Below, in pieces: positions 4,921 to 64,000 of a stretch of 64,000 nt of DNA (position 1 is the first letter of the stretch; each line of letters starts with the position of its first letter). The DNA comes from Lingula anatina (lineage: Eukaryota; Animalia; Brachiopoda): positions 14,322,001 through 14,386,000 of the forward strand of contig CM120642.1 of assembly GCA_051362555.1 (NCBI GenBank), read 5' to 3'. Position numbers and translations under genes: made by a program. A model generated the notes under the pieces. The model was not told where the DNA came from and made no database searches. It saw only the letters and a list, made by a program, of their open reading frames with translations.

Positions 4921-5076
4921 CTGAAATAAACATCATAGACCATGCTCATTCATCGATGTATGGTAGTTTGTAATGCATTTCGCTTTAAGTTAGAAAAGAG
5001 GGAGCACACCTAATGTTTTTTAAGATACTGAGATAAAATTAATTTATGATAAAATTGAATTAGAGAAGTGTAAAAT

Positions 5077-6856: not shown

Positions 6857-6902
<46 letters not shown>

Positions 6903-6922
6903 GCGCGCGCGCGCGCGCGCGC
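6857..6922. repeat. Compound microsatellite (TC)17(AC)6(GC)10
   Basis: Directly visible: TC 6857-6890, AC 6891-6902, GC 6903-6922. Confidence 0.95.
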
Positions 6923-7899: not shown

Positions 7900-8061
7900 C
7901 TGTCTGAGAGCCGTCTCCTGTTGCTTCTTGCTATAGTGTCCCTGGGTGCCACTTCCTGGCCCTGGCCTCCAGCACGTCCATAACTAACACTCTGGCCTGA
8001 GAGCTGAGACACTGGTCCTTCGCAGCCTGAGGTATTGTGTTGAATATCAGGTTGAGGGTAG
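7900..8061 (-). CDS. Isolated 162-nt exon encoding the C-terminal helices of a MIF4G-like domain; TAG at 7931-7933 (natural end or nonsense mutation)
   Basis: Strong splice sites ctttcatttcag|...CAG|GTGAGT. The phase-1 frame reads TLNLIFNTIPQAAKDQCLSSQARVLVMDVLEARARKWHPGTL*, resembling the eIF4G MIF4G end (YFNQM...[22 protein letters not shown]). A second frame is fully open but has no recognisable motif. Confidence 0.6.
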
Positions 8062-10395: not shown

Positions 10396-10500
10396 TCAGA
10401 GGGGGCACCACCTGTAACTCTCTGTCGTCTGTCCATGGTCTGGCCACCATATCCCACGATGTCCCCGCTTTGTTTTCTTGCTGCATATCTCTAACAGGTA
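10385..10500 (-). mobile_element. Possible decayed RTE-type LINE 3' tip, tail-to-tail with the Rex/Babar copy
   Basis: The minus strand reads RDMQQENKAGTSWDMVAR then, in a shifted frame, MDRRQ. This loosely matches the RTE C-terminal W..(A)xDRxxW motif and is followed by a (TAA)-like tail. Confidence 0.3.
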
Positions 10501-11334: not shown

Positions 11335-14300
11335 AGTTAGGATAGTAAATTTCATTTTTGGGGGTGGTGGGATGGGTAAATTGATAAAATCTAATCTTGT
11401 TTTTCTTTTCTTTTTACAGGATGAAGAAGATGATGAGGGACCCCACCCAGACATGGACTTCACCCTTGGATCCAAGTTAAGGTTAGTAAATTTCATTTTT
11501 TTTGGGGGTGGTGGGGTTGGTAAATTGAAGAAATCTAATCTTGTTTTTCATTTCTTTTTACAGGACGAAGAAGATGAAGTGAGACCCCAACTGGACATGG
11601 ACTTCACCCTTGGATCCAAACTAAGGTAAGTAAATTTCTTTTTTTTGGGGTGGCGGGAATGGTAAATTGAAGAAATCTAATCCTGTTTTTCGTTTCTTGT
11701 TACAGGACAAAGAAGATGATGAGCGCCCCCAACCGGACATGGACTTCACCCTTGGATTCAAGCTAAGGTTAGTAAATTTCATTTTTTGGGGGTGGGGGGA
11801 TTAGTAAATTGAAGAAATCTAATCCTGTTTTTCGTTTCTTTTTACAGGACAAAGAAGATGATGAGCGCCCCTTCCCAGACATGGACTTCACACTTGGATC
11901 CAAGCTAAGGTTAGTAAATTTTATTTTATCGGGGTGGTGGGATGGGTAAATTAAATAAATCTTATCTTGTTTTTCATTTCTTTTTATAGGACGAAGAAGA
12001 TGAAGTGAGACCCCAACCGGACATGGACTTCACCCGTGGATCCAAGCTAAGGTAAGTAAATTTCATTTTTTTGGGGTGGCGGGAATGGTAAATTGAAGAA
12101 ATCTAATCCTGTTTTTCTTTTCTTTTTACAGGATGAAGAAGATGATGAGGGACCCCACCCAGACATGGACTTCACTCTTGGATCAAAGTTAAGGTTAGTA
12201 AATTTCGATTTTTTGGGGTGGTGGGATGGGTAAATTGAAGAAATCTAATCTTGTTTTTCTTTTCTTTTTATAGGACGAAGAAGATGATGAGGGACCCCAC
12301 CCAGACATGGACTTCACACTTGGATCCAAGCTAAGGTTAGTAAATTTCATTTTTTTAGGGTGGTGGGATGGGTAAATTAAATAAATCTAATCTTCTTTTT
12401 CATTTCTTTTTACAGGACGAAGAAGATGAAGTGAGACCCCAACCGGACATGGACTTCACCCTTGGATCCAAGCTAAGGTAAGTAAATTTCATTTTTTGGG
12501 GGTGGCGGGAATGGTAAATTGAAGAAATCTAATCCTGTTTTTCGTTTCTTTTTACAGGACAAAGAAGATGATGAGCGCCCCCAACCGGACATGGACTTCA
12601 CCCTTGGATTCAAGCTAAGGTTAGTAAATTTTATTTTTTCGGGGTGGTGGGATGGGTAAATTGAAGAAATCTAATCTTGTTTTTCGTTTCTTTTTATAGG
12701 ATGAAGAAGATGATGAGGGACCCCACCCGGACATGGACTTCACACTTGGATCCAAGCTAAGGTTAGTAAATTTCATTTTTTTGGGGTGGTGGGATGGGTA
12801 AATTGAAGAAATCTAATCTTGTTTTTCTTTTCTTTTTACCGGACGAAGAAGATGAAGTGAGACCCCAACCGGACATGGACTTCACCCTTGGATCCAAGCT
12901 AAGGTAAGTAAATTTAATTTTTTTGGGGTGGCGGGAATGGTAAATTGAAGTAATCTAATCCTGTTTTTCGTTTCTTTTTACAGGACAAAGAACATGATGA
13001 GTGCCCCCAACCGGACATGGACTTCACCCTTGGATTCAAGCTAAGGTTAGTAAATTTCATTTTTTTGGGGTGGTGGGATTGGTAAATTGAAGAAATCTAA
13101 TCTTGTTTTTCTTTTCTTTTTACAGGATGAAGAAGATGATGAGGGACCCCACCCAGACATGGACTTCACTCTTGGATCAAAGTTAAGGTTAGTAAATTTC
13201 ATTTTTTTGGGGTGGTGGGATGGGTAAATTGAAGAAATCTAATCTTGTTTTTCATTTCTTTTTACAGGACGAAGAAGATGAAGTGAGACCCCAACCGGAC
13301 ATGGACTTCACCCTTGGATCCAAGCTAAGGTAAGTAAATTTCATTTTTTTGGGGTGGCGGGAATGGTAAATTGAAGAAATCTAATCTTGTTTTTCGTTTC
13401 TTTTTATAGGACGAAGAAGATGATGAGGGACCCCACCCGGACATGGATTTCACACTTGGATCCAAGCTAGGGTTAGTAAATTTCATTTTTTTGGGGTGGT
13501 GGGATGGGTAAATTGAAGAAATCTAATCTTGTTTTTCTTTTCTTTTTACAGGATGAAGAAGATGATGAGGGACCCCACCCAGACATGGACTTCACACTTG
13601 GATCCAAGCTAAGGTTAGTAAATTTCATTTTTTTAGGGTGGTGGGATGGGTAAATTAAATAAATCTAATCTTCTTTTTCATTTCTTTTTACAGGACGAAG
13701 AAGATGAAGTGAGACCCCAACCGGACATGGACTTCACCCTTGGATCCAAGCTAAGGTAAGTAAATTTCATTTTTTGGGGGTGGCGGGAATGGTAAATTGA
13801 AGAAATCTAATCCTGTTTTTCGTTTCTTTTTACAGGACAAAGAAGATGATGAGCGCCCCCAACCGGACATGGACTTCACCCTTGGATTCAAGCTAAGGTT
13901 AGTAAATTTCATTTTTTGGGGGTGGGGGGATTAGTAAATTGAAGAAATCTAATCCTGTTTGTCGTTTCTTTTTACAGGACAAAGAAGATGATGAGCGCCC
14001 CTACCCAGACATGGACTTCACACTTGGATCCAAGCTAGGGTTAGTAAATTTCATTTCTTTGGGGTGGTGGGGTTGGTAAATTGAAGAAATCTAATCTTGT
14101 ATTTCATTTCTTTTTACAGGACGAAGAAGATGAAGTGAGACCCAAACCGGACATGGACTTCACACTTGGATCCAAGCTAAGGTTAGTAAATTTCATTTTT
14201 TTGGGGTGGTGGGATGGGTAAATTGAAGAAATCTAATCTTGTTTTTCTTTTCTTTTTACCGGACGAAGAAGATGAAGTGAGACCCCAACCGGACATGGAC

Positions 14301-17300
14301 TTCACCCTTGGATCCAAGCTAAGGTAAGTAAATTTAATTTTTTTGGGGTGGCGGGAATGGTAAATTGAAGAAATCTAATCCTGTTTTTTGTTTCTTTTTA
14401 CAGGACAAAGAACATGATGAGTGCCCCCAACCGGACATGGACTTCACCCTTGGATTCAAGCTAAGGTTAGTAAATTTCATTTTTTTGGGGTGGTGGGATT
14501 GGTAAATTGAAGAAATCTAATCTTGTTTTTCTTTTCTTTTTACAGGATGAAGAAGATGATGAGGGACCCCACCCAGACATGGACTTCACTCTTGGATCAA
14601 AGTTAAGGTTAGTAAATTTCATTTTTTTGGGGTGGTGGGATGGGTAAATTGAAGAAATCTAATCTTGTTTTTCATTTCTTTTTACAGGACGAAGAAGATG
14701 AAGTGAGACCCCAACCGGACATGGACTTCACCCTTGGATCCAAGCTAAGGTAAGTAAATTTCATTTTTTTGGGGTGGCGGGAATGGTAAATTGAAGAAAT
14801 CTAATCTTGTTTTTCGTTTCTTTTTATAGGACGAAGAAGATGATGAGGGACCCCACCCGGACATGGATTTCACACTTGGATCCAAGCTAGGGTTAGTAAA
14901 TTTCATTTTTTTGGGGTGGTGGGATGGGTAAATTGAAGAAATCTAATCTTGTTTTTCTTTTCTTTTTACAGGATGAAGAAGATGATGAGGGACCCCACCC
15001 AGACATGGACTTCACCCTTGGATCCAAGTTAAGGTTAGTAAATTTCATTTTTTTTTGGGGTGGTGGGGATGGTAAATTGAAGAAATCTAATTTTGATTTT
15101 CATTTCTTTTTACAGGACGAAGAAGATGAAGTGAGACCCCAACCGGACATGGACTTCACCCTTGGATCCAAACTAAGGTAAGTAAATTTCTTTTTTTTGG
15201 GGTGGCGGGAATGGTAAATTGAAGAAATCTAATCCTGTTTTTCGTTTCTTGTTACAGGACAAAGAAGATGATGAGCGCCCCCAACCTGACATGGACTTCA
15301 CCCTTGGATTCAAGCTAAGGTTAGTAAATTTCATTTTTTTGGGGTGGTGGGATGGGTAAATTGAAGAAATCTAATCTTGTTTTTCTTTTATTTTTACAGG
15401 ATGAAGAAGATGATGAGGGACCCCACCCGGACATGGACTTCACACTTGTATCCAAGCTAAGGTTAGTAAATTTCATTTTTTTGGGGTGGTGGGATGGGTA
15501 AATTGAAGAAATCTAATCTTGTTTTTCTTTTATTTTTACAGGATGAAGAAGATGATGAGGGACCCCACCCAGACATGGACTTCACTCTTGGATCAAAGTT
15601 AAGGTTAGTAAATTTCATTTTTTTGGGGTGGTGGGATGGGTAAATTGAAGAAATCTAATCTTGTTTTTCATTTCTTTTTACAGGACGAAGAAGATGAAGT
15701 GAGACCCCAACCGGACATGGACTTCACCCTTGGATCCAAGCTAAGGTAAGTAAATTTCATTTTTTTGGGGTGGCGGGAATGGTAAATTGAAGAAATCTAA
15801 TCTTGTTTTTCGTTTCTTTTTATAGGACGAAGAAGATGATGAGGGACCCCACCCGGACATGGATTTCACACTTGGATCCAAGCTAGGGTTAGTAAATTTC
15901 ATTTTTTTGGGGTGGTGGGATGGGTAAATTGAAGAAATCTAATCTTGTTTTTCTTTTCTTTTTACAGGATGAAGAAGATGATGAGGGACCCCACCCAGAC
16001 ATGGACTTCACCCTTGGATCCAAGTTAAGGTTAGTAAATTTCATTTTTTTTTGGGGTGGTGGGGTTGGTAAATTGAAGAAATCTAATTTTGATTTTCATT
16101 TCTTTTTACAGGAAGAAGAAGATGAAGTGAGACCCCAACCGGACATGGACTTCACCCTTGGATCCAAGCTAAGGTAAGTAAATTTCATTTTTTTGGGGTG
16201 GCGGGAATGGTAAATTGAAGAAATCTAATCCTGTTTTTCGTTTCTTTTTACAGGACAAAGAAGATGATGAGCGCCCCCAACCGGACATGGACTTCACCCT
16301 TGGATTCAAGCTAAGGTTAGTAAATTTCATTTTTTGGGGGTGGGGGGATTAGTAAATTGAAGAAATCTTATCCTGTTTGTCGTTTCTTTTTACAGGACAA
16401 AGAAGATGATGAGCGCCCCTACCCAGACATGGACTTCACACTTGGATCCAAGCTAAGGTTAGTAAATTTTATTTTTTCGGGGTGGTGGGATGGGTAAATT
16501 GAAGAAATCTAATCTTGTTTTTTGTTTCTTTTTATAGGACGAAGAAGATGATAAGGGACCCCACCCGGACATGGACTTCACACTTGGATCCAAGCTAAGG
16601 TTAGTAAATTTCATTTTTTTGGGGTGGTGGGATGGGTAAATTGAAGAAATCTAATCTTGTTTTTCTTTTCTTTTTACCGGACGAAGAAGATGAAGTGAGA
16701 CCCCAACCGGACATGGACTTCACCCTTGGATCCAAGCTAAGGTAAGTAAATTTCATTTTTTTGGGGTGGCGGGAATGGTAAATTGAAGAAATCTAATCCT
16801 GTTTTTCGTTTCTTTTTACAGGACAAAGAAGATGATGAGCGCCCCCAACCGGACATGGACTTCACCCTTGGATTCAAGCTAAGGTTAGTAAATTTCATTT
16901 TTTGGGGGTGGGGGGATTAGTAAATTGAAGAAATCTAATCCTGTTTTTCGTTTCTTTTTACAGGACAAAGAAGATGATGAGCGCCCCTTCCCAGACATGG
17001 ACTTCACACTTGGATCCAAGCTAAGGTTAGTAAATTTTATTTTATCGGGGTGGTGGGATGGGTAAATTAAATAAATCTAATCTTGTTTTTCATTTCTTTT
17101 TACAGGACGAAGAAGATGAAGTGAGACCCCAACCGGACATGGACTTCACCCGTGGATCCAAGCTAAGGTAAGTAAATTTCATTTTTTTGGGGTGGCGGGA
17201 ATGGTAAATTGAAGAAATCTAATCCTGTTTTTCTTTTCTTTTTACAGGATGAAGAAGATGATGAGGGACCCCACCCAGACATGGACTTCACTCTTGGATC

Positions 17301-26300: not shown

Positions 26301-29300
26301 GTAAATTGAAGAAATCTAATCCTGTTTTTCGTTTCTTTTTACAGGAAAAAGAAGATGATGAGCGCCCCCACCCGGACATGGATTTCACACTTGGATCCAA
26401 GCTAGGGTTAGTAAATTTCATTTTTTTGGGGTGGTGGGATGGGTAAATTGAAGAAATCTAATCTTGTTTTTCTTTTCTTTTTACAGGATGAAGAAGATGA
26501 TGAGGGACCCCACCCAGACATGGACTTCACCCTTGGATCCAAGTTAAGGTTAGTAAATTTCATTTTTTTTTGGGGTGGCGGGAATGGTAAATTGAAGAAA
26601 TCTAATCCTGTTTTTCGTTTCTTGTTACAGGACAAAGAAGATGAAGTGAGACCCCAACTGGACATGGACTTCACACTTGGATCCAAGCTAAGGTAAGTAA
26701 ATTTCTTTTTTTTTTGGGGTGGCGGGAATGGTAAATTGAAGAAATCTAATCCTGTTTTTCGTTTCTTGTTACAGGACAAAGAAGATGATGAGCGCCCCTA
26801 CCCAGACATGGACTTCACACTTGGATCCAAGCTAAGGTTAGTAAATTTTATTTTTTCGGGGTGGTGGGATGGGTAAATTGAAGAAATCTAATCTTGTTTT
26901 TTGTTTCTTTTTATAGGACGAAGAAGATGATGAGGGACCCCACCCGGACATGGACTTCACACTTGGATCCAAGCTAAGGTTAGTAAATTTCATTTTTTTG
27001 GGGTGGTGGGATGGGTAAATTGAAGAAATCTCATCTTGTTTTTCTTTTCTTTTTACCGGACGAAGAAGATGAAGTGAGACCCCAACCGGACATGGACTTC
27101 ACCCTTGGATCCAAGCTAAGGTAAGTAAATTTCATTTTTTTGGGGTGGCGGGAATGGTAAATTGAAGAAATCTAATCTTGTTTTTCATTTCTTTTTACAG
27201 GATGAAGAAGATGAAGTGAGACCCCAACCGGACATGGACTTCACCCTTGGATCCAAACTAAGGTAAGTAAATTTCATTTTTTTGGGGTGGCGGGAATGGT
27301 AAATTGAGGAAATCTAATCCTGTTTTTCGTTTCTTTTTACAGGACAAAGAAGATGATGAGCGCCCCCAACCGGACATGGACTTCACCCTTGGATTCAAGC
27401 TAAGGTTAGTAAATTTCATTTTTTGGGGGTGGGGGGATTAGTAAATTGAAGAAATCTAATCCTGTTTTTCGTTTCTTTTTACAGGAAAAAGAAGATGATG
27501 AGCGCCCCTTCCCAGACATGGACTTCACACTTGGATCCAAGCTAAGGTTAGTAAATTTTATTTTATCGGGGTGGTGGGATGGGTAAATTAAATAAAACTA
27601 ATCTTGTTTTTCATTTCTTTTTACAGGACAAAGAAGATGAAGTGAGACCCCAACCGGACATGGACTTCACCCTTGGATCCAAGCTAAGGTAAGTAAATTT
27701 CATTTTTTTGGGGTGGCGGGAATGGTAAATTGAAGAAATCTAATCTTGTTTTTCATTTCTTTTTACAGGATGAAGAAGATGAAGTGAGACCCCAACCGGA
27801 CATGGACTTCACCCTTGGATCCAAGCTAAGGTAAGTAAATTTCATTTTTTTGGGGTGGCGGGAATGGTAAATTGAGGAAATCTAATCCTGTTTTTCGTTT
27901 CTTTTTACAGGACAAAGAAGATGATGAGCGCCCCCAACCGGACATGGACTTCACCCTTGGATTCAAGCTAAGGTTAGTAAATTTCATTTTTTGGGGGTGG
28001 GGGGATTAGTAAATTGAAGAAATCTAATCCTGTTTTTCGTTTCTTTTTACAGGACAAAGAAGATGATGAGCGCCCCCAACCGGACATGGACTTCACCCTT
28101 GGATTCAAGCTAAGGTTAGTAAATTTCATTTTTTCGGGGTGGGGAGATTAGTAAATTGAAGAAATCTAATCCTGTTTTTCGTTTCTTTTTACAGGACAAA
28201 GAAGATGATGAGCGCCCCCAACCGGACATGGACTTCACCCTTGGATTCAAGCTAAGGTTAGTAAATTTCATTTTTTGGGGGTGGGGGGATTAGTAAATTG
28301 AAGAAATCTAATCCTGTTTTTCGTTTCTTTTTACAGGACAAAGAACATGATGAGTGCCCCCAACCGGACATGGACTTCACCCTTGGATTCAAGCTAAGGT
28401 TAGTAAATTTCATTTTTTTGGGGTGGTGGGATGGGTAAATTGAAGAAATCTAATCCTGTTTTTCGTTTCTTTTTACAGGACAAAGAAGATGTTGAGCGCC
28501 CCCAATCGGACTTAGACTTCACCCTTGGATTCAAGCTAAGGTTAGTAAATTTCATTTTTTGGGGGTGGGGGGATTAGTAAATTGAAGAAATCTAATCCTG
28601 TTTTTCGTTTCTTTTTACAGGATGAAGAAGATGATGAACGCCCCTACCCAGACATGGACTTCACACTTGGATCCAAGCTAAGGTTAGTAAATTTTATTTT
28701 ATCGGGGTGGTGGGATGGGTAAATTGAAGAAATCTAATCTTGTTTTTCGTTTCTTTTTATAGGACGAAGAAGATGATGAGGGACCCCACCCGGACATGGA
28801 TTTCACACTTGGATCCAAGCTAGGGTTAGTAAATTTCATTTTTTTTGGGGTGGTGGGATGGGTAAATTGAAGAAATCTAATCTTGTTTTTCTTTTCTTTT
28901 TACAGGATGAAGAAGATGATGAGGGACCCCACCCAGACATGGACTTCACCCTTGGATCCAAGTTAAGGTTAGTAAATTTCATTTTTTTGGGGTGGTGGGA
29001 TGGGTAAATTGAAGAAATCTAATCTTGTTTTTCTTTTCTTTTTACCGGACGAAGAAGATGAAGTGAGACCCCAACCGGACATGGACTTCACCCTTGGATC
29101 CAAGCTAAGGTTAGTAAATTTCATTTTTTTGGTGTGGCGGGAATGGTAAATTGAAGAAATCTAATCTTGTTTTTCATTTCTTTTTACAGGATGAAGAAGA
29201 TGAAGTGAGACCCCAACCGGACATGGACTTCACCCTTGGATCCAAGCTAAGGTAAGTAAATTTCATTTTTTTGGGTTGGCGGGAATGGTAAATTGAAGAA

Positions 29301-32300
29301 ATCTAATCCTGTTTTTCGTTTCTTTTTACAGGACAAAGAAGATGATGAGCGCCCCCAACCGGACATGGACTTCACCCTTGGATTCAAGCTAAGGTTAGTA
29401 AATTTCATTTTTTGGGGGTGGGGGGATTAGTAAATTGAAGAAATCTAATCCTGTTTTTCGTTTCTTTTTACAGGACAAAGAAGATGATGAGCGCCCCTTC
29501 CCAGACATGGACTTCACACTTGGATCCAAGCTAAGGTTAGTAAATTTTATTTTATCGGGGTGGTGGGATGGGTAAATTAAATAAATCTAATCTTGTTTTT
29601 CATTTCTTTTTACAGGACAAAGAAGATGAAGTGAGACCCCAACCGGACATGGACTTCACCCATGGATCCAAGCTAAGGTAAGTAAATTTCATTTTTTTGG
29701 GGTGGCGGAAATGGTAAATTGAAGAAATCTAATCCTGTTTTTCGTTTCTTTTTACAGGACAAAGAAGATGATGAGCGCCCCCAACCGGACATGGACTTCA
29801 CCCTTGGATTCAAGCTAAGGTTAGTAAATTTCATTTTTTGGGGTGGGGAGATTAGTAAATTGAAGAAATCTAATCCTGTTTTTCGTTTCTTTTTACAGGA
29901 CAAAGAAGATGATGAGCGCCCCTACCCAGACATGGACTTCACACTTGGATCCAAGCTAAGGTTAGTAAATTTTATTTTTTCGGGGTGGTGGGATGGGTAA
30001 ATTGAAGAAATCTAATCTTGTTTTTCGTTTCTTTTTATAGGACGAAGAAGATGATGAGGGACCCCACCCGGACATGGACTTCACACTTGGATCCAAGCTA
30101 AGGTTAGTAAATTTCATTTTTTTGGGGTGGTGGGATGGGTAAATTGAAGAAATCTAATCTTGTTTTTCTTTTCTTTTTACAGGATGAAGAAGATGATGAG
30201 GGACCCCACCCAGACATGGACTTCACTCTTGGATCCAAGTTAAGGTTAGTAAATTTCATTTTTTTGGGGTGGTGGGGTTGGTAAATTGAATAAATCTAAT
30301 CTTGTTTTTCATTTCTTTTTACAGGATGAAAAAGATGAAGTGAGACCCCAACCGGACATGGACTTCACCCTTGGATTCAAGCTAAGGTTAGTAAATTTCA
30401 TTTTTTGGGGGTGGGGGGATTAGTAAATTGAAGAAATCTAATCCTGTTTTTTGTTTCTTTTTACAGGACAAAGAAGATGATGAGCGCCCCTTCCCAGACA
30501 TGGACTTCACACTTGGATCCAAGCTAAGGTTAGTAAATTTTATTTTAACGGGGTGGTGGGATGGGTAAATTAAATAAATCTAATTTTATTTTTTATTTCT
30601 TTTTACAGGACAAAGAAGATGATGAGCGCCCCCAACCGGACATGGACTTCACCCTTGGATCCAAGCTAAGGTAAGTAAATTTCATTTTTTGGGGGTGGCG
30701 GGAATGGTAAATTGAAGAAATCTAATCCTGTTTTACGTTTCTTTTTACAGGACAAAGAAGATGATGAGCGCCCCCAACCGGACATGGACTTCACCCTTGG
30801 ATTCAAGCTAAGGTTAGTAAATTTCATTTTTTGGGGGTGGGGGGATTAGTAAATTGAAGAAATCTAATCCTGTTTGTCGTTTCTTTTTACAGGACAAAAA
30901 AGATGATGAACGCCCCTACCCAGACATGGACTTCACACTTGGATCCAAGCTAAGGTTAGTAAATTTTATTTTATCGGGGTGGTGGGATGGGTAAATTGAA
31001 GAAATCTAATCTTGTTTTTCGTTTCTTTTTATAGGACGAAGAAGATGATTAGGGACCCCACCCGGACATGGATTTCACACTTGGATCCAAGCTAAGGTTA
31101 GTAAATTTCATTTTTTTGGGGTGGTGGCATGGGTAAATTGAAGAAATCTAATCTTGTTTTTCTTTTCTTTTTACCGGACGAAGAAGATGAAGTGAGACCC
31201 CAACCGGACATGGACTTCACCCTTGGATCCAAGCTAAGGTAAGTAAATTTCATTTTTTTGGGGTGGCGGGAATGGTAAATTGAAGAAATCTAATCCTGTT
31301 TTTCGTTTCTTTTTACAGGACAAAGAACATGATGAGTGCCCCCAACCGGACATGGATTTCACCCTTGGATTCAAGCTAAGGTTAGTAAATTTCATTTTTT
31401 GGGGGTGGGGGGATTAGTAAATTGAAGAAATCTAATCCTGTTTTTTGTTTCTTTTTACAGGATGAAGAAGATGATGAGCTCTCCTACCCAGACATGGACT
31501 TCACACTTGGATCCAAGCTAAGGTTAGTAAATTTCATTTTTTTGGGGTGTTGGGATGGGTAAATTGAAGAAATCTAATCTTGTTTTTTGTTTCTTTTTAT
31601 AGGACGAAGAAGATGATGAGGGACCCCACCCGGACATGGACTTCACACTTGGATCCAAGCTAAGGTTAGTAAATTTCATTTTTTTGGGGTGGTGGGATGG
31701 GTAAATTGAAGAAATCTAATCTTGTTTTTCTTTTCTTTTTACAGGATGAAGAAGATGATGAGGGACCCCACCCAGACATGGACTTCACTCTTGGATCCAA
31801 GTTAAGGTTAGTAAATTTCATTTTTTTGGGGTGGTGGGGTTGGTAAATTGAATAAATCTAATCTTGTTTTTCATTTCTTTTTACAGGATGAAGAAGATGA
31901 AGTGAGACCCCAACCGGACATGGACTTCACCCTTGGATCCAAGTTAAGGTAAGTAAATTTCATTTTTTTGGTGTGGCGGGAATGGTAAATTGAAGAAATC
32001 TAATCCTGTTTTTCGTTTCTTTTTACAAGACAAAGAAGATGATGAGCGCCCCCAACCGGACAAGGACTTCACCCTTGGATTCAAGCTAAGGTTAGTAAAT
32101 TTCATTTTTTGGGGGTGGGGGGATTAGTAAATTGAAGAAATCTAATCCTGTTTTTCGTTTCTTTTTACAGGACAAAGAAGATGATGAGCGCCCCCAACCG
32201 GACATGGACTTCACCCTTGGATTCAAGCTAAGGTTAGTAAATTTCATTTTTTCGGGGTGGGGAGATTAGTAAATTGAAGAAATCTAATCCTGTTTTTCGT

Positions 32301-35300
32301 TTCTTTTTACAGGACAAAGAAGATGATGAGCGCCCCCAACCGGACATGGACTTCACCCTTGGATTCAAGCTAAGGTTAGTAAATTTCATTTTTTGGGGGT
32401 GGGGGGATTAGTAAATTGAAGAAATCTAATCCTGTTTTTCGTTTCTTTTTACAGGACAAAGAACATGATGAGTGCCCCCAACCGGACATGGACTTCACCC
32501 TTGGATTCAAGCTAAGGTTAGTAAATTTCATTTTTTTGGGGTGGTGGGATGGGTAAATTGAAGAAATCTAATCCTGTTTTTCGTTTCTTTTTACAGGACA
32601 AAGAAGATGTTGAGCGCCCCCAATCGGACTTAGACTTCACCCTTGGATTCAAGCTAAGGTTAGTAAATTTCATTTTTTGGGGGTGGGGGGATTAGTAAAT
32701 TGAAGAAATCTAATCCTGTTTTTCGTTTCTTTTTACAGGATGAAGAAGATGATGAACGCCCCTACCCAGACATGGACTTCACACTTGGATCCAAGCTAAG
32801 GTTAGTAAATTTTATTTTATCGGGGTGGTGGGATGGGTAAATTGAAGAAATCTAATCTTGTTTTTCGTTTCTTTTTATAGGACGAAGAAGATGATGAGGG
32901 ACCCCACCCGGACATGGACTTCACCCTTGGATCCAAGCTAAGGTTAGTAAATTTCATTTTTTTGGTGTGGCGGGAATGGTAAATTGAAGAAATCTAATCT
33001 TGTTTTTCATTTCTTTTTACAGGATGAAGAAGATGAAGTGAGACCCCAACCGGACATGGACTTCACCCTTGGATCCAAGCTAAGGTAAGTAAATTTCATT
33101 TTTTTGGGTTGGCGGGAATGGTAAATTGAAGAAATCTAATCCTGTTTTTCGTTTCTTTTTACAGGACAAAGAAGATGATGAGCGCCCCCAACCGGACATG
33201 GACTTCACCCTTGGATTCAAGCTAAGGTTAGTAAATTTCATTTTTTGGGGGTGGGGGGATTAGTAAATTGAAGAAATCTAATCCTGTTTTTCGTTTCTTT
33301 TTACAGGACAAAGAAGATGATGAGCGCCCCTTCCCAGACATGGACTTCACACTTGGATCCAAGCTAAGGTTAGTAAATTTTATTTTATCGGGGTGGTGGG
33401 ATGGGTAAATTAAATAAATCTAATCTTGTTTTTCATTTCTTTTTACAGGACAAAGAAGATGAAGTGAGACCCCAACCGGACATGGACTTCACCCATGGAT
33501 CCAAGCTAAGGTAAGTAAATTTCATTTTTTTGGGGTGGCGGAAATGGTAAATTGAAGAAATCTAATCCTGTTTTTCGTTTCTTTTTACAGGACAAAGAAG
33601 ATGATGAGCGCCCCCAACCGGACATGGACTTCACCCTTGGATTCAAGCTAAGGTTAGTAAATTTCATTTTTTGGGGTGGGGAGATTAGTAAATTGAAGAA
33701 ATCTAATCCTGTTTTTCGTTTCTTTTTACAGGACAAAGAAGATGATGAGCGCCCCTACCCAGACATGGACTTCACACTTGGATCCAAGCTAAGGTTAGTA
33801 AATTTTATTTTTTCGGGGTGGTGGGATGGGTAAATTGAAGAAATCTAATCTTGTTTTTCGTTTCTTTTTATAGGACGAAGAAGATGATGAGGGACCCCAC
33901 CCGGACATGGACTTCACACTTGGATCCAAGCTAAGGTTAGTAAATTTCATTTTTTTGGGGTGGTGGGATGGGTAAATTGAAGAAATCTAATCTTGTTTTT
34001 CTTTTCTTTTTACAGGATGAAGAAGATGATGAGGGACCCCACCCAGACATGGACTTCACTCTTGGATCCAAGTTAAGGTTAGTAAATTTCATTTTTTTGG
34101 GGTGGTGGGGTTGGTAAATTGAATAAATCTAATCTTGTTTTTCATTTCTTTTTACAGGATGAAAAAGATGAAGTGAGACCCCAACCGGACATGGACTTCA
34201 CCCTTGGATTCAAGCTAAGGTTAGTAAATTTCATTTTTTGGGGGTGGGGGGATTAGTAAATTGAAGAAATCTAATCCTGTTTTTTGTTTCTTTTTACAGG
34301 ACAAAGAAGATGATGAGCGCCCCTTCCCAGACATGGACTTCACACTTGGATCCAAGCTAAGGTTAGTAAATTTTATTTTAACGGGGTGGTGGGATGGGTA
34401 AATTAAATAAATCTAATTTTATTTTTTATTTCTTTTTACAGGACAAAGAAGATGATGAGCGCCCCCAACCGGACATGGACTTCACCCTTGGATCCAAGCT
34501 AAGGTAAGTAAATTTCATTTTTTGGGGGTGGCGGGAATGGTAAATTGAAGAAATCTAATCCTGTTTTACGTTTCTTTTTACAGGACAAAGAAGATGATGA
34601 GCGCCCCCAACCGGACATGGACTTCACCCTTGGATTCAAGCTAAGGTTAGTAAATTTCATTTTTTGGGGGTGGGGGGATTAGTAAATTGAAGAAATCTAA
34701 TCCTGTTTGTCGTTTCTTTTTACAGGACAAAAAAGATGATGAACGCCCCTACCCAGACATGGACTTCACACTTGGATCCAAGCTAAGGTTAGTAAATTTT
34801 ATTTTATCGGGGTGGTGGGATGGGTAAATTGAAGAAATCTAATCTTGTTTTTCGTTTCTTTTTATAGGACGAAGAAGATGATTAGGGACCCCACCCGGAC
34901 ATGGATTTCACACTTGGATCCAAGCTAAGGTTAGTAAATTTCATTTTTTTGGGGTGGTGGCATGGGTAAATTGAAGAAATCTAATCTTGTTTTTCTTTTC
35001 TTTTTACCGGACGAAGAAGATGAAGTGAGACCCCAACCGGACATGGACTTCACCCTTGGATCCAAGCTAAGGTAAGTAAATTTCATTTTTTTGGGGTGGC
35101 GGGAATGGTAAATTGAAGAAATCTAATCCTGTTTTTCGTTTCTTTTTACAGGACAAAGAACATGATGAGTGCCCCCAACCGGACATGGATTTCACCCTTG
35201 GATTCAAGCTAAGGTTAGTAAATTTCATTTTTTGGGGGTGGGGGGATTAGTAAATTGAAGAAATCTAATCCTGTTTTTTGTTTCTTTTTACAGGATGAAG

Positions 35301-38300
35301 AAGATGATGAGCTCTCCTACCCAGACATGGACTTCACACTTGGATCCAAGCTAAGGTTAGTAAATTTCATTTTTTTGGGGTGTTGGGATGGGTAAATTGA
35401 AGAAATCTAATCTTGTTTTTTGTTTCTTTTTATAGGACGAAGAAGATGATGAGGGACCCCACCCGGACATGGACTTCACACTTGGATCCAAGCTAAGGTT
35501 AGTAAATTTCATTTTTTTGGGGTGGTGGGATGGGTAAATTGAAGAAATCTAATCTTGTTTTTCTTTTCTTTTTACAGGATGAAGAAGATGATGAGGGACC
35601 CCACCCAGACATGGACTTCACTCTTGGATCCAAGTTAAGGTTAGTAAATTTCATTTTTTTGGGGTGGTGGGGTTGGTAAATTGAATAAATCTAATCTTGT
35701 TTTTCATTTCTTTTTACAGGATGAAGAAGATGAAGTGAGACCCCAACCGGACATGGACTTCACCCTTGGATCCAAGTTAAGGTAAGTAAATTTCATTTTT
35801 TTGGTGTGGCGGGAATGGTAAATTGAAGAAATCTAATCCTGTTTTTCGTTTCTTTTTACAAGACAAAGAAGATGATGAGCGCCCCCAACCGGACAAGGAC
35901 TTCACCCTTGGATTCAAGCTAAGGTTAGTAAATTTCATTTTTTGGGGGTGGGGGGATTAGTAAATTGAAGAAATCTAATCCTGTTTTTCGTTTCTTTTTA
36001 CAGGACAAAAAAGATGATGAACGCCCCTACCCAGACATGGACTTCACACTTGGATCCAAGCTAAGGTTAGTAAATTTTATTTTATCGGGGTGGTGGGATG
36101 GGTAAATTGAAGAAATCTAATCTTGTTTTTCGTTTCTTTTTATAGGACGAAGAAGATGATTAGGGACCCCACCCGGACATGGATTTCACACTTGGATCCA
36201 AGCTAAGGTTAGTAAATTTCATTTTTTTGGGGTGGTGGCATGGGTAAATTGAAGAAATCTAATCTTGTTTTTCTTTTCTTTTTACCGGACGAAGAAGATG
36301 AAGTGAGACCCCAACCGGACATGGACTTCACCCTTGGATCCAAGCTAAGGTAAGTAAATTTCATTTTTTTGGGGTGGCGGGAATGGTAAATTGAAGAAAT
36401 CTAATCCTGTTTTTCGTTTCTTTTTACAGGACAAAGAACATGATGAGTGCCCCCAACCGGACATGGATTTCACCCTTGGATTCAAGCTAAGGTTAGTAAA
36501 TTTCATTTTTTGGGGGTGGGGGGATTAGTAAATTGAAGAAATCTAATCCTGTTTTTTGTTTCTTTTTACAGGATGAAGAAGATGATGAGCTCTCCTACCC
36601 AGACATGGACTTCACACTTGGATCCAAGCTAAGGTTAGTAAATTTCATTTTTTTGGGGTGTTGGGATGGGTAAATTGAAGAAATCTAATCTTGTTTTTCG
36701 TTTCTTTTTATAGGACGAAGAAGATGATGAGGGACCCCACCCGGACATGGACTTCACACTTGGATCCAAGCTAAGGTTAGTAAATTTCATTTTTTTTGGG
36801 GTGGTGGGATGGGTAAATTGAAGAAATCTAATCTTGTTTTTCTTTTCTTTTTACAGGATGAAGAAGATGATGAGGGACCCCACCCAGACATGGACTTCAC
36901 TCTTGGATCCAAGTTAAGGTTAGTAAATTTCATTTTTTTGGGGTGGTGGGGTTGGTAAATTGAATAAATCTAATCTTGTTTTTCATTTCTTTTTACAGGA
37001 TGAAGAAGATGAAGTGAGACCCCAACCGGACATGGACTTCACCCTTGGATCCAAGTTAAGGTAAGTAAATTTCATTTTTTTGGTGTGGCGGGAATGGTAA
37101 ATTGAAGAAATCTAATCCTGTTTTTCGTTTCTTTTTACAGGACAAAGAAGATGATGAGCGCCCCCAACCGGACAAGGACTTCACCCTTGGATTCAAGCTA
37201 AGGTTAGTAAATTTCATTTTTTGGGGGTGGGGGGATTAGTAAATTGAAGAAATCTAATCCTGTTTTTCGTTTCTTTTTACAGGACAAAAAAGATGATGAA
37301 CGCCCCTACCCAGACATGGACTTCACACTTGGATCCAAGCTAAGGTTAGTAAATTTTATTTTATCGGGGTGGTGGGATGGGTAAATTGAAGAAATCTAAT
37401 CTTGTTTTTCTTTTCTTTTTACAGGATGAAGAAGATGATGAGGGACCCCACCCAGACATGGACTTCACCCTTGGATCCAAGTTAAGGTTAGTAAATTTCA
37501 TTTTTTTTTGGGGTGGTGGGGTTGGTAAATTGAAGAAATCTAATCTTGTTTTTCATTTCTTTTTACAGGACGAAGAAGATGAAGTGAGACCCCAACCGGA
37601 CATGGACTTCACCCTTGGATCCAAACTAAGGTAAGTAAATTTCTTTTTTTTTGGGGTGGCGGGAATGGTAAATTGAAGAAATCTAATCCTGTTTTTCGTT
37701 TCTTGTTACAGGACAAAGAAGATGATGAGCGCCCCCAACCGGACATTGACTTCACCCTTGGATTCAAGCTAAGGTTAGTAAATTTCATTTTTTTGGGGTG
37801 GTGGGATGGGTAAATTGAAGAAATCTAATCTTGTTTTTCTTTTATTTTTACAGGATGAAGAAGATGATGAGGGACCCCACCCGGACATGGACTTCACACT
37901 TGGATCCAAGCTAAGGTTAGTAAATTTCATTTTTTTGGGGTGGTGGGATGGGTAAATTGAAGAAATCTAATCTTGTTTTTCTTTTATTTTTACAGGACAA
38001 AGAAGATGATGAGCGCCCCTACCCAGACATGGACTTCACACTTGGATCCAAGCTAAGGTTAGTAAATTTTATTTTTTCGGGGTGGTGGGATGGGTAAATT
38101 GAAGAAATCTAATCTTGTTTTTCGTTTCTTTTTTTATAGGACGAAGAAGATGATTAGGGACCCCACCCGGACATGGATTTCACACTTGGATCCAAGCTAA
38201 GGTTAGTAAATTTCATTTTTTTTGGGTGGTGGCATGGGTAAATTGAAGAAATCTAATCTTGTTTTTCTTTTCTTTTTACCGGACGAAGAAGATGAAGTGA

Positions 38301-56300: not shown

Positions 56301-59300
56301 CTTTTTATAGGACGAAGAAGATGATGAGGGACCCCACCCGAACATGGACTTCACACTTGGATCCAAGCTAAGGTTAGTAAATTTTATTTTATCGGGGTGG
56401 TGGGATGGGTAAATTAAATAAATCTAATCTTGTTTTTCATTTCTTTTTACAGGACGAAGAAGATGAAGTGAGACCCCAACCGGACATGGACTTCACCCGT
56501 GGATCCAAGCTATGGTAAGTAAATTTCATTTTTTAGGGGTGGCGGGAATGGTAAATTGAAGAAATCTAATCCTGTTTTTCTTTTCTTTTTACAGGATGAA
56601 GAAGATGATGAGGGACCCCACCCAGACATGGACTTCACTTTTGGATCAAAGTTAAGGTTAGTAAATTTCATTTTTTTGGGGTGGTGGGATGGGTAAATTG
56701 AAGAAATCTAATCTTGTTTTTCTTTTCTTTTTATAGGACGAAGAAGATGATGAGGGACCCCACCCAGACATGGACTTCACACTTGGATCCAAGCTAAGGT
56801 TAGTAAATTTCATTTTTTGGGGTGGGGAGATTAGTAAATTGAAGAAATCTAATCCTGTTTTTCGTTTCTTTTTACAGGACAAAGAAGATGATGAGCGCCC
56901 CCAACCGGACATGGACTTCACCCTTGGATTCAAGCTAAGGTTAGTAAATTTCATTTTTTGGGGGTGGGGGGATTAGTAAATTGAAGAAATCTAATCCTGT
57001 TTTTCGTTTCTTTTTATAGGACAAAGAAGATGATGAGCGCCCCTACCCAGACATGGACTTCACACTTGGATCCAAGCTAAGGTTAGTAAATTTTATTTTT
57101 TCGGGATGGTGGGATGGGTAAATTGAAGAAATCTAATCTTGTTTTTCTTTTCTTTTTACAGGATGAAGAAGATGATAAGGGACCCCACCCAGACATGGAC
57201 TTCACTCTTGGATCCAAGTTAAGGTTAGTAAATTTCATTTTTTTGGGGTGGTGGGGTTGGTAAATTGAATAAATCTAATCTTGTTTTTCATTTCTTTTTA
57301 CAGGATGAAGAAGATGAAGTGAGACCCCAACCGGACATGGACTTCACCCTTGGATCCAAGCTAAGGTAAGTAAATTTCATTTTTTTGGGGTGGCGGGAAT
57401 GGTAAATTGAAGAAATCTAATCCTGTTTTTCGTTTCTTTTTACAGGACAAAGAAGATGATGAGCGCCCCTTCCCAGACATGGACTTCACACTTGGATCCA
57501 AGCTAAGGTTAGTAAATTTCATTTTTTTGGGGTGGTGGGATGGGTAAATTAAATAAATCTAATCTTGTTTTTCATTTCTTTTTACAGGACGAAGAAGATG
57601 AAGTGAGACCCCAACCGGACATGGACTTCACCCGTGGATCCAAGCTAAGGTAAGTAAATTTCATTTTTTTGGGGTGGCGGGAATGGTAAATTGAAGAAAT
57701 CTAATCCTGTTTTTCGTTTCTTTTTACAGGACAAAGAAGATGATGAGCGCCCCCAACCGGACATGGACTTCACCCTTGGATTCAAGCTAAGGTTAGTAAA
57801 TTTCATTTTTTAGGGGTGGGGGGATTAGTAAATTGAAGAAATCTAATCCTGTTTTTCGTTTCTTTTTACAGGACAAAGAAGATGATGAGCGCCCCTACCC
57901 TGACATGGACTTCACACTTGGATCCAAGCTAAGGTTAGTAAATTTCATTTTTTTGGGGTGGTGGGATGGGTAAATTGAAGAAATCTAATCTTGTTTTTCT
58001 TTTCTTTTTACAGGATGAAGCAGATGATGAGGGACCCCACCCAGACATGGACTTCACACTTGGATCCAAGTTAAGGTTAGTAAATTTCATTTTTTTGGGG
58101 TGATGGGGTTGGTAAATTGAAGAAATCTAATCTTGTTTTTCATTTCTTTTTACAGGACGAAGAAGATGAAGTGAGACCCCAACCGGACATGGACTTCACC
58201 CTTGGATCCAAGCTAAGGTAAGTAAATTTCATTTTTTTGGGGTGGCGGGAATGGTAAATTGAAGAAATCTAATCCTGTTTTTCGTTTCTTTTTACAGGAC
58301 AAAGAAGATGATGAGCGCCCCCAACCGGACATGGACTTCACCCTTGGATTCAAGCTAAGGTTAGTAAATTTCATTTTTTGGGGGTGGGGGGATTAGTAAA
58401 TTGAAGAAATCTAATCCTGTTTTTCGTTTCTTTTTACAGGACAAAGAAGATGATGAACGCCCCTACCCAGACATGGACTTCACACTTGGATCCAAGCTAA
58501 GGTTAGTAAATTTCATTTTTTTGGGGTGGTGGGATGGGTAAATTGAAGAAATCTAATCTTGTTTTTCGTTTCTTTTTATAGGACGAAGAAGATGATGAGG
58601 GACCCCACCCGAACATGGACTTCACACTTGGATCCAAGCTAAGGTTAGTAAATTTTATTTTATCGGGGTGGTGGGATGGGTAAATTAAATAAATCTAATC
58701 TTGTTTTTCATTTCTTTTTACAGGACGAAGAAGATGAAGTGAGACCCCAACCGGACATGGACTTCACCCGTGGATCCAAGCTATGGTAAGTAAATTTCAT
58801 TTTTTAGGGGTGGCGGGAATGGTAAATTGAAGAAATCTAATCCTGTTTTTCTTTTCTTTTTACAGGATGAAGAAGATGATGAGGGACCCCACCCAGACAT
58901 GGACTTCACTTTTGGATCAAAGTTAAGGTTAGTAAATTTCATTTTTTTGGGGTGGTGGGATGGGTAAATTGAAGAAATCTAATCTTGTTTTTCTTTTCTT
59001 TTTATAGGACAAAGAAGATGATGAGGGACCCCACCCAGACATGGACTTCACACTTGGATCCAAGCTAAGGTTAGTAAATTTCATTTTTTTAGGGTGGTGG
59101 GATGGGTAAATTAAATAAATCTAATCTTCTTTTTCATTTCTTTTTACAGGACGAAGAAGATGAAGTGAGACCCCAACCAGTGGACTTCACCCTTGGATCC
59201 AAGCTAAGGTAAGTAAATTTTATTTTTTTGGGGTGGCGGGAATGGTAAATTGAAGAAATCTAATCCTGTTTTTCGTTTCTTTTTACAGGACAAAGAAGAT

Positions 59301-62300
59301 GATGAGCGCCCCCAACCAGACATGGACTTCACCCTTGGATTCAAGCTAAGGTTAGTAAATTTCATTTTTTGGGGTGGGGAGATTAGTAAATTGAAGAAAT
59401 CTAATCCTGTTTTTCGTTTCTTTTTACAGGACAAAGAAGATGATGAGCGCCCCCAACCGGACATGGACTTCACCCTTGGATTCAAGCTAAGGTTAGTAAA
59501 TTTCATTTTTTGGGGGTGGGGGGATTAGTAAATTGAAGAAATCTAATCCTGTTTTTCGTTTCTTTTTACAGGACAAAGAAGATGATGAGCGCCCCTACCC
59601 AGACATGGACTTCACACTTGGATCCAAGCTAAGGTTAGTAAATTTTATTTTTTCGGGATGGTGGGATGGGTAAATTGAAGAAATCTAATCTTGTTTTTCT
59701 TTTCTTTTTACAGGATGAAGAAGATGATAAGGGACCCCACCCAGACATGGACTTCACTCTTGGATCCAAGTTAAGGTTAGTAAATTTCATTTTTTGGGGG
59801 TGGTGGGGTTGGTAAATTGAATAAATCTAATCTTGTTTTTCATTTCTTTTTACAGGATGAAGAAGATGAAGTGAGACCCCAACCGGACATGGACTTCACC
59901 CTTGGATCCAAGCTAAGGTAAGTAAATTTCATTTTTTTGGGGTGGCGGGAATGGTAAATTGAAGAAATCTAATCCTGTTTTTCGTTTCTTTTTACAGGAC
60001 AAAGAAGATGATGAGCGCCCCCAACCGGACATGGACTTCACCCTTGGATTCAAGCTAAGGTTAGTAAATTTCATTTTTTGGGGGTGGGGGGATTAGTAAA
60101 TTGAAGAAATCTAATCCTGTTTTTCGTTTCTTTTTACAGGACAAAGAAGATGATGAACGCCCCTACCCAGACATGGACTTCACACTTGGATCCAAGCTAA
60201 GGTTAGTAAATTTTATTTTATCGGGGTGGTGGGATGGGTAAATTAAATAAATCTAATCTTGTTTTTCATTTCTTTTTACAGGACGAAGAAGATGAAGTGA
60301 GACCCCAACCGGACATGGACTTCACCCGTGGATCCAAGCTATGGTAAGTAAATTTCATTTTTTAGGGGTGGCGGGAATGGTAAATTGAAGAAATCTAATC
60401 CTGTTTTTCTTTTCTTTTTACAGGATGAAGAAGATGATGAGGGACCCCACCCAGACATGGACTTCACTTTTGGATCAAAGTTAAGGTTAGTAAATTTCAT
60501 TTTTTTGGGGTGGTGGGATGGGTAAATTGAAGAAATCTAATCTTGTTTTTCTTTTCTTTTTATAGGACGAAGAAGATGATGAGGGACCCCACCCAGACAT
60601 GGACTTCACACTTGGATCCAAGCTAAGGTTAGTAAATTTCATTTTTTTAGGGTGGTGGGATGGGTAAATTAAATAAATCTAATCTTCTTTTTCATTTCTT
60701 TTTACAGGACGAAGAAGATGAAGTGAGACCCCAACCAGTGGACTTCACCCTTGGATCCAAGCTAAGGTAAGTAAATTTTATTTTTTTGGGGTGGCGGGAA
60801 TGGTAAATTGAAGAAATCTAATCCTGTTTTTCGTTTCTTTTTACAGGACAAAGAAGATGATGAGCGCCCCCAACCAGACATGGACTTCACCCTTGGATTC
60901 AAGCTAAGGTTAGTAAATTTCATTTTTTGGGGTGGGGAGATTAGTAAATTGAAGAAATCTAATCCTGTTTTTCGTTTCTTTTTACAGGACAAAGAAGATG
61001 ATGAGCGCCCCCAACCGGACATGGACTTCACCCTTGGATTCAAGCTAAGGTTAGTAAATTTCATTTTTTGGGGGTGGGGGGATTAGTAAATTGAAGAAAT
61101 CTAATCCTGTTTTTCGTTTCTTTTTATAGGACAAAGAAGATGATGAGCGCCCCTACCCAGACATGGACTTCACACTTGGATCCAAGCTAAGGTTAGTAAA
61201 TTTTATTTTTTCGGGATGGTGGGATGGGTAAATTGAAGAAATCTAATCTTGTTTTTCTTTTCTTTTTACAGGATGAAGAAGATGATAAGGGACCCCACCC
61301 AGACATGGACTTCACTCTTGGATCCAAGTTAAGGTTAGTAAATTTCATTTTTTTGGGGTGGTGGGGTTGGTAAATTGAATAAATCTAATCTTGTTTTTCA
61401 TTTCTTTTTACAGGATGAAGAAGATGAAGTGAGACCCCAACCGGACATGGGCTTCACCCTTGGATCCAAGCTAAGGTAAGTAAATTTCATTTTTTTGGGG
61501 TGGCGGGAATGGTAAATTGAAGAAATCTAATCCTGTTTTTCGTTTCTTTTTACAGGACAAAGAAGATGATGAGCGCCCCTTCCCAGACATGGACTTCACA
61601 CTTGGATCCAAGCTAAGGTTAGTAAATTTCATTTTTTTGGGGTGGTGGGATGGGTAAATTAAATAAATCTAATCTTGTTTTTCATTTCTTTTTACAGGAC
61701 GAAGAAGATGAAGTGAGACCCCAACCGGACATGGACTTCACCCGTGGATCCAAGCTAAGGTAAGTAAATTTCATTTTTTTGGGGTGGCGGGAATGGTAAA
61801 TTGAAGAAATCTAATCCTGTTTTTCGTTTCTTTTTACAGGACAAAGAAGATGATGAGCGCCCCCAACCGGACATGGACTTCACCCTTGGATTCAAGCTAA
61901 GGTTAGTAAATTTCATTTTTTAGGGGTGGGGGGATTAGTAAATTGAAGAAATCTAATCCTGTTTTTCGTTTCTTTTTACAGGACAAAGAAGATGATGAGC
62001 GCCCCTACCCAGACATGGACTTCACACTTGGATCCAAGCTAAGGTTAGTAAATTTCATTTTTTTGGGGTGGTGGGATGGGTAAATTGAAGAAATCTAATC
62101 TTGTTTTTCGTTTCTTTTTATAGGACGAAGAAGATGATGAGGGACCCCACCCGAACATGGACTTCACACTTGGATCCAAGCTAAGGTTAGTAAATTTTAT
62201 TTTATCGGGGTGGTGGGATGGGTAAATTAAATAAATCTAATCTTGTTTTTCATTTCTTTTTACAGGACGAAGAAGATGAAGTGAGACCCCAACCGGACAT

Positions 62301-64000
62301 GGACTTCACCCGTGGATCCAAGCTATGGTAAGTAAATTTCATTTTTTAGGGGTGGCGGGAATGGTAAATTGAAGAAATCTAATCCTGTTTTTCTTTTCTT
62401 TTTACAGGATGAAGAAGATGATGAGGGACCCCACCCAGACATGGACTTCACTTTTGGATCAAAGTTAAGGTTAGTAAATTTCATTTTTTTGGGGTGGTGG
62501 GATGGGTAAATTGAAGAAATCTAATCTTGTTTTTCTTTTCTTTTTATAGGACGAAGAAGATGATGAGGGACCCCACCCAGACATGGACTTCACACTTGGA
62601 TCCAAGCTAAGGTTAGTAAATTTCATTTTTTTAGGGTGGTGGGATGGGTAAATTAAATAAATCTAATCTTCTTTTTCATTTCTTTTTACAGGACGAAGAA
62701 GATGAAGTGAGACCCCAACCAGTGGACTTCACCCTTGGATCCAAGCTAAGGTAAGTAAATTTTATTTTTTTGGGGTGGCGGGAATGGTAAATTGAAGAAA
62801 TCTAATCCTGTTTTTCGTTTCTTTTTACAGGACAAAGAAGATGATGAGCGCCCCCAACCAGACATGGACTTCACCCTTGGATTCAAGCTAAGGTTAGTAA
62901 ATTTCATTTTTTGGGGTGGGGAGATTAGTAAATTGAAGAAATCTAATCCTGTTTTTCGTTTCTTTTTACAGGACAAAGAAGATGATGAGCGCCCCCAACC
63001 GGACATGGACTTCACCCTTGGATTCAAGCTAAGGTTAGTAAATTTCATTTTTTGGGGGTGGGGGGATTAGTAAATTGAAGAAATCTAATCCTGTTTTTCG
63101 TTTCTTTTTATAGGACAAAGAAGATGATGAGCGCCCCTACCCAGACATGGACTTCACACTTGGATCCAAGCTAAGGTTAGTAAATTTTATTTTTTCGGGA
63201 TGGTGGGATGGGTAAATTGAAGAAATCTAATCTTGTTTTTCTTTTCTTTTTACAGGATGAAGAAGATGATAAGGGACCCCACCCAGACATGGACTTCACT
63301 CTTGGATCCAAGTTAAGGTTAGTAAATTTCATTTTTTTGGGGTGGTGGGGTTGGTAAATTGAATAAATCTAATCTTGTTTTTCATTTCTTTTTACAGGAT
63401 GAAGAAGATGAAGTGAGACCCCAACCGGACATGGACTTCACCCTTGGATCCAAGCTAAGGTAAGTAAATTTCATTTTTTTGGGGTGGCGGGAATGGTAAA
63501 TTGAAGAAATCTAATCCTGTTTTTCGTTTCTTTTTACAGGACAAAGAAGATGATGAGCGCCCCTTCCCAGACATGGACTTCACACTTGGATCCAAGCTAA
63601 GGTTAGTAAATTTCATTTTTTTGGGGTGGTGGGATGGGTAAATTAAATAAATCTAATCTTGTTTTTCATTTCTTTTTACAGGACGAAGAAGATGAAGTGA
63701 GACCCCAACCGGACATGGACTTCACCCGTGGATCCAAGCTAAGGTAAGTAAATTTCATTTTTTTGGGGTGGCGGGAATGGTAAATTGAAGAAATCTAATC
63801 CTGTTTTTCGTTTCTTTTTACAGGACAAAGAAGATGATGAGCGCCCCCAACCGGACATGGACTTCACCCTTGGATTCAAGCTAAGGTTAGTAAATTTCAT
63901 TTTTTAGGGGTGGGGGGATTAGTAAATTGAAGAAATCTAATCCTGTTTTTCGTTTCTTTTTACAGGACAAAGAAGATGATGAGCGCCCCTACCCAGACAT
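11335..64000 (+). repeat. Tandem array of ~370 x ~142-bp units with higher-order structure; each unit is an ~80-nt intron-like part plus a 62-nt exon-like part; open at the right edge
   Basis: Consensus gttagtaaatttcatttttttggggtggtgggatgggtaaattgaagaaatctaatcttgtttttcttttctttttacag|GATGAAGAAGATGATGAGGGACCCCACCCAGACATGGACTTCACCCTTGGATCCAAGCTAAG, repeated head-to-tail with no interruption seen. Copy number is estimated as length/142. Most units carry a BamHI site. Confidence 0.98.
11420..11481 (+). other. First 62-nt exon-like cassette of the array (DEEDDEGPHPDMDFTLGSKL-R), representative of all copies
   Basis: Preceded by CTAAT, a polypyrimidine tract and ACAG (AG at 11418-11419); followed by GTTAGT at 11482. 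Only frame 0 is open. Confidence 0.7.

Follow-up and report, generated by a model that had tools for sequence, protein, structure and literature searches.

The plus strand of a 64,000-nucleotide (nt) stretch of Lingula anatina DNA (contig CM120642.1; this whole stretch is the window below) holds, from 11335 to its right end, a single tandem array whose 142-base monomer reads as a complete exon-intron cassette. We find that the array is a genuine and unusually clean exon-intron satellite with strand-specific splice signals on the plus strand only, and it probably arose when one real spliced exon, together with its splice signals, underwent runaway amplification in tandem; it now likely evolves neutrally, as a satellite. 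Even if neutral, it would be a clear case of a satellite caught soon after a spliced exon gave rise to it: one stretch lets us read the probable first breakpoint, a subtype stage and the later amplification. It also offers a natural test of how the spliceosome handles near-identical exons (62 nt) and introns (80 nt) by the hundred.

Structure of the array

Tandem Repeats Finder describes 11339-64000 as 370.8 copies of period 142 with 90% matches, and parsing gives 370 complete exon-like units (the last at 63824-63885) plus a 371st interrupted by the window end, that is at least 370 copies arranged head-to-tail over 52.7 kilobases (kb). This bears out an earlier note on the same DNA, made from the letters, which spoke of some 370 copies over more than 50 kb of a ~142-bp unit carrying donor, branch motif, pyrimidine tract and acceptor in that order. 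The exon-like units measure 62 nt in 363 copies and 59 nt in the other 7, and they are separated by 369 intron-like spacers of 79-83 nt each; a 62-nt unit without spacer was not found in the window DNA. The donor GT is kept in all 369 spacers (GTTAGT in 270, GTAAGT in 93, other GT starts in 6) and the acceptor AG in 346 of them (CAG in 288, TAG in 58), the remainder reading CCG (20), CAA (2) or CAT (1), so that GT and AG are both intact in 345 of the 368 inner copies. The branch motif CTAA(T/C) begins 29 nt upstream of the exon in 361 of the 370 units, which sets the branch-point A some 26 nt away from the acceptor and leaves a donor-to-branch distance of 54-58 nt. Upstream of this motif, 47 of the 369 introns carry AATAAA on the plus strand (e.g. 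11954, 12380, 13658).

That these signals exceed chance is indicated by 5000 circular dinucleotide shuffles for each of two modal units, scored on either strand with a generic splice-site weight matrix (not trained on Lingula). The observed donor-plus-acceptor score was reached by 3 and by 0 of the 5000 shuffles, and by none that had a branch motif and an open frame as well. Over the 369 units the mean best score is 14.6 on the plus strand and -0.5 on the minus strand, on which grounds a minus-strand cassette was rejected. The reading frame is another matter. Frame 0 is open in 366/370 exons, which yield 63 distinct peptides, and stops occur in frame 1 in 369/370 and in frame 2 in 370/370; the claim that the exon is open in one frame only is thus true as a description. 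It is no evidence for coding, however, because about half of shuffled exons (9,851/20,000, 49%) are open in exactly one frame too, and 16,633/20,000 in at least one. We also rejected a long unspliced reading frame through the array (longest open stretch, 151 codons) and a stable RNA structure of the unit (z +0.96).

Transcription of the array family

RNA evidence comes from four (X1, X2, X4, X7) of nine raw-read runs with the same species label, these four representing 3 studies and each run being read to 6-25%. Reads were aligned to 7000-11500, a stretch with one unit onto which all similar copies pile, and counts include both mates, so reads are not independent. A minus-strand exon served to calibrate strand, such that a first mate on the minus strand reports plus-strand RNA in X1 and X2, with X4 and X7 uncalibrated. 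Copies of the array's family are transcribed at a low level and mostly sense: the unit is faintly covered in all four runs (depth 1-15), and mean depth over 11379-11500 is, for first mates on minus/plus, 12.3/0 (X1), 1.36/0, 8.43/0.48 and 9.4/5.25 (X2). Pure contamination by DNA is accordingly disfavoured as the source of reads in X1 (12.3 vs 0 by strand) and conceivable in X2 (9.4 vs 5.25). Just left of the array (11077-11227) depth is 0 in all four runs.

Most reads over the unit include the end of the intron, with 13, 2, 8 and 11 reads at intron position 11406 and 16, 2, 10 and 18 at exon position 11464 in the four runs; only 2 X1 reads pass an end of the aligned stretch, and therefore few continue through the donor there. 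The earlier note had proposed to look for RNA junctions at the 62-nt boundaries, and one was found in X1: six reads with two starts join 11479 back to 11418 with 3 ambiguous letters (the intervening letters being marked as not known), which equals a joint from exon end 11481 to exon start 11420 exactly. No exon-to-exon joint was seen in the three other runs, and among the joints listed (15 of 24) this is the single one concerning the unit.

The transcribed copies are not those in front of us. Reads carry T at 11464 in 42/46 and C at 11477 in 33/36 cases, whereas T at 11464 is present in 42/363 window copies, is always paired there with T at 11477, and the T and C pair occurs in 0/363. The absence of this allele pair indicates that the transcribed copies differ from those assembled in the window; a more distant part of the array, a paralogous locus or another haplotype is their likely source.

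Evolution of the array

The array evolves like a satellite, in that it is a long array of short monomers with recurring subtypes and homogenised copies. Its exons split into four subtypes (of 118, 92, 79 and 67 copies; 14 others), 94-97% identical within and 85-91% between them, and the subtype order G-V-F-Y is followed by 217 of the 369 neighbour pairs (10,000 shuffles: mean 84.6, maximum 118). An identical twin over 114 nt exists for 271/362 copies, distinct full units number 198 among 369, and a 21-unit block is duplicated exactly inside the array, which may reflect a recent internal duplication or an assembly duplication.

Variants seem to have spread without regard to coding or splicing, albeit with limited power, as dN/dS (the ratio of non-synonymous to synonymous change) is not significantly below 1 and 27 of the 370 copies have a dead acceptor or a stop. 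Single-step exon alleles comprise 18 synonymous and 45 non-synonymous ones (dN/dS 0.65-0.86; P for synonymous excess 0.08-0.34), that is no significant synonymous excess over all alleles of the kind expected from selection on the exons as protein variants, and alleles in fewer than 10 copies (10:33, synonymous to non-synonymous) match the expectation without selection. The four GT/AG sites have three derived alleles, close to the average of ~1.1-1.3 per site. A dead CCG acceptor is found in 20 copies between 12842 and 53617 (~41 kb), and one stop allele is shared by 4 copies.

Search for a parent gene and host exons

The view that the unit derives from a real coding exon plus a short intron is supported with respect to exon origin, in the light of the strand-specific signals and the six-read boundary joint, but not with respect to coding, where no protein relative and weak-at-best selection were found. 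The exon peptide, taken in the read-through frame, gave 0/56 candidates at E 10 against longer proteins in a word-index search, 0 matches among PDB sequences, 0 at E 0.001 among 1.84 billion representative proteins and 0 in Pfam; Atlas features for its residues 1-21 gave no usable match. With a query of only 21 residues such protein searches are weak and do not prove absence. A 27-nt exon motif had 0 matches in metagenome contigs, no RNA holder of the unit is listed among indexed run contigs, and Rfam gave no family in 1-13000 beyond one weak, chance-level match. Outside the array no plus-strand exon candidate passed a splice scan of 1-11700, no flanking plus-strand exon was covered by reads in 7000-11335, and no pieces of the unit were found in 1-11334.

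Joining successive 62-nt exons brought a stop within the second copy in 4/4 trials, and therefore no repeat protein can be encoded by the array. A protein could draw on it only for single exons, and none of our results shows such use.

Origin of the array and competing explanations

How might one spliced exon have turned into hundreds? Every unit supplies a donor, a branch motif, a pyrimidine tract and an acceptor, on the plus strand only. At the left edge of the array, 140 nt upstream of the first exon's own donor, there is a short look-alike of exon end and donor, and slippage or unequal crossover between the two may have produced the first duplication. The donor would thereby have come to adjoin the final ~74 nt of the upstream intron, the result being a self-contained 80-nt intron; a duplication of this type would give exactly the order seen in the unit, namely donor, late upstream intron, exon. 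The unit would then have diverged into the four subtypes and a 4-unit block would have been amplified and reshuffled by unequal crossover, to which the subtype cycle in the array points. Unequal crossover is a model for satellite homogenisation in general. Today family copies are transcribed at the low level described above and a few reads join exon to exon at exact boundaries. As the length of 62 nt does not divide by three and stops close both remaining frames, such exon-joined products presumably cannot extend a protein and would be non-coding or targets of decay. Of the two options raised in the earlier note, a satellite descended from part of a gene agrees with the subtype cycle, the twins and the spread of dead copies, while a giant bank of alternative exons is disfavoured by low, mostly intron-bearing read cover, by that same spread and by the lack of plus-strand flanking exons in the part tested.

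Several points weigh against our preferred reading of an amplified spliced exon that is now neutral. Because a parent gene was not found in searches of the window flank and protein databases, the notion of a real exon leans on the signals and on six reads (two starts, one of four runs), from 6-25% of four of nine runs whose tissues are unspecified, and a reverse-transcriptase switch at the 3-letter overlap may explain the exon-exon joint. As to neutrality, alleles in at least 10 copies lean synonymous (8:12, P 0.04-0.12), zero GT donors are lost among 369, and each of the 7 exons of variant length has lost 3 nt, through 2 or 3 events in all. Together, intact GTs, 3-nt deletions and synonymous-leaning common alleles may be compatible with selection that is past or weak. 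The array's right end, moreover, falls beyond the window.

An exon bank would consist of mutually exclusive exons in a plus-strand host gene with distant constant exons, one 62-nt exon being chosen per mRNA, so that a single acidic stretch of 20 residues would come in as many as 63 versions, and with double inclusions removed through frameshift and decay. If one copy per mRNA did enter such a host, this would be the largest known alternative-exon cluster, more than four times the 81-exon shrimp Dscam cluster. The mostly intact splice sites and open frames suit such a bank, as do features of known clusters (PMC5740500): lengths indivisible by three are common in them, and the frameshift on double inclusion is present here too; exon-joining reads are known in some; and our donor-to-branch distance is near the steric limit of <50 nt. 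Dscam1 clusters reach up to 53 exons in Drosophila (PMC5740500) and those of Penaeus monodon Dscam hold 26, 81 and 26 (PMC6851185), so the earlier benchmark of 48 variants was too low; they also use docking site-selector pairing (PMC12962786). Like Dscam1, the array repeats a single internal exon many times in tandem, and every copy brings splice sites of its own. Unlike Dscam1, it has at least 370 near-identical copies in a satellite-like cycle, homogenised rather than diversified, with dN/dS near 1 and dead copies spread, and no host gene, domain, docking site or one-exon-per-mRNA reads were found for it. In particular, there is no plus-strand exon candidate in 1-11335, no protein that holds the peptide and no perfect complement of at least 13 nt between unit and 11-kb flank (a crude test), read depth is nil next to the array, and the reads mostly come with the intron end and in one allele class absent from the window. 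So to our minds, an exon bank is very improbable.

We also regard as unlikely a selected non-coding transcription unit, be it a splice-signal-rich RNA that binds splicing factors or a spliced, repetitive long non-coding RNA. There is a precedent in chicken LL2R, a single-locus array of ~360 copies, ~86% alike, with one-strand transcription and dense splice sites, in which donors are in more than threefold excess and thought to splice poorly (bioRxiv 10.64898/2026.03.19.712899). Our array resembles LL2R in copy number and splice-site density, sense-biased reads occur in all four runs from three studies, and the intronic AATAAA motifs could terminate transcripts. Unlike LL2R, however, the unit has one balanced donor-branch-acceptor set; depth is very low for 370 copies and the reads mismatch window copies, no promoter was seen, and fold and Rfam tests were negative as stated. 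Low depth does not in itself rule out such a unit because nascent nuclear RNA would be under-sampled by these libraries. Just as unlikely, in our estimate, is that the array is the outgrown central repeat of a transposable element, whether a Helentron/Helitron or a DNA transposon, with a captured or own spliced exon. Consistent with it, satellite-like arrays in oyster are Helentron central repeats (PMC7492417), the neighbourhood resembles a patchwork of duplicated pieces, and 27 nt at 11281-11307, 28 nt left of the array, are 81% alike, inverted, to 9130-9156 in a dispersed repeat. This match is short, though (E 0.034 in a small search), and stops short of the unit, the window yielded neither a transposon protein nor a transposon terminus, and the right end lies beyond it. 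Least probable of all seems an ordinary satellite that resembles splice signals by chance, or a short array multiplied in error during assembly. T-runs and G-runs are frequent in satellites, an open frame is expected by chance and one 21-unit block is exactly duplicated; but the shuffled units hardly ever reach the observed score, the joint reads land exactly on the boundaries, and 198 distinct full units in irregular order are hard to get by mis-assembly. Amplification of a spliced exon remains the explanation that we favour.

Comparison with other repeat systems

With higher-order satellites and the oyster Helentron central repeats (PMC7492417) the array shares a short monomer, ordered subtypes, recent homogenisation and neutral spread of variants, yet unlike in higher-order satellites its monomer is a complete splice cassette. 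A further relative in kind may be SmPoMuc of Schistosoma mansoni, where a 27-nt frame-keeping exon sits in ~1-kb units, with ~20 genomic repeats in a gene that is translated (PMC2576457). Here as there an exon and flanking intron sequence are tandemly repeated as a genomic unit with repeat subtypes; our unit, in contrast, is 142 nt long, is present in at least 370 copies and breaks the frame when its 62-nt exons are joined. Searches of the open-access literature listed no paper describing this array, or any satellite with a single balanced exon-intron cassette as its monomer, and a Lingula genome preprint (bioRxiv 10.1101/2024.05.28.596352), as far as its available parts go, mentions satellites once, in a figure legend.

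Left flank and neighbouring genes

Table 1. Features of the window, with coordinates and strand.
Feature	Position	Strand	Basis or remark
Tandem array of 142-bp exon and intron units	11335..64000	+	370 complete exons; four subtypes in an irregular 4-unit cycle
Left edge of array: short look-alike of exon end and donor, GA instead of GT	11335..11346	+	Sequence; putative breakpoint
First intron-like spacer, lacking a GT donor: G-run, branch motif, pyrimidine tract, CAG	11341..11419	+	
First exon-like unit (62 nt), running from phase 0 to phase 2 in the open frame	11420..11481	+	The read joint from exon end to exon start falls here
First complete intron, GT...AG, 82 nt	11482..11563	+	
Two exact copies of the 21-unit block, starting at 29110 and 32943	29110..35925	+	Right end approximate
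Two exons of a serum amyloid A (SAA) gene, neighbour outside the array	4091..4929	-	Pfam SAA match; 95-98% identical to Lingula anatina proteins
Exon with the end of a MIF4G-like domain, spliced and expressed; neighbour outside the array	7900..8061	-	Reads and PDB matches

The SAA gene encodes a signal peptide and a dibasic site, and its close match to Lingula anatina proteins agrees with an origin of the window in this brachiopod or a near relative. It has a stop codon where Lingula proteins P0001-P0003 carry Gln45, and therefore this copy or allele looks broken. In an older assembly, two near-identical SAA models lie on different scaffolds.

The MIF4G-like exon and 7052-7145 belong to a spliced minus-strand transcript, with a depth of ~200-290 in both runs from one study and close to 0 in the remaining two runs. 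For the exon, PDB gave just 3 matches at E <=10, all of them MIF4G-domain proteins (best E 0.027), and a word-index protein search gave 0/16 candidates. We did not find in the window the exons to which reads join it, reads over the transcript depart from the window sequence at fixed positions, and an older gene model starts inside the intron upstream of the exon and fuses it to SAA, all of which suggests a duplicated fragment or very long introns. We rejected a shared origin of this exon and the array, as the two are on opposite strands and exon or intron pieces are absent from 1-11334.

At 7464-7690 lies a dispersed element with inverted ends, which we take to resemble a miniature inverted-repeat transposable element, under heavy cover by divergent reads on both strands in all four runs. 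Broken plus-strand frames at 9950-10300, also covered by divergent reads, presumably recall the end of a reverse transcriptase from a long interspersed nuclear element, with no Pfam match at E 0.1. On the minus strand, 5880-5930 and 10400-10500 look exon-like by eye with acceptor-like ends, the latter nearly without read cover. Two short inverted-repeat elements complete the flank, one at 3812-3980 (53-nt arms at 72%) and the other at 5376-5511 (26-nt arms at 92%).

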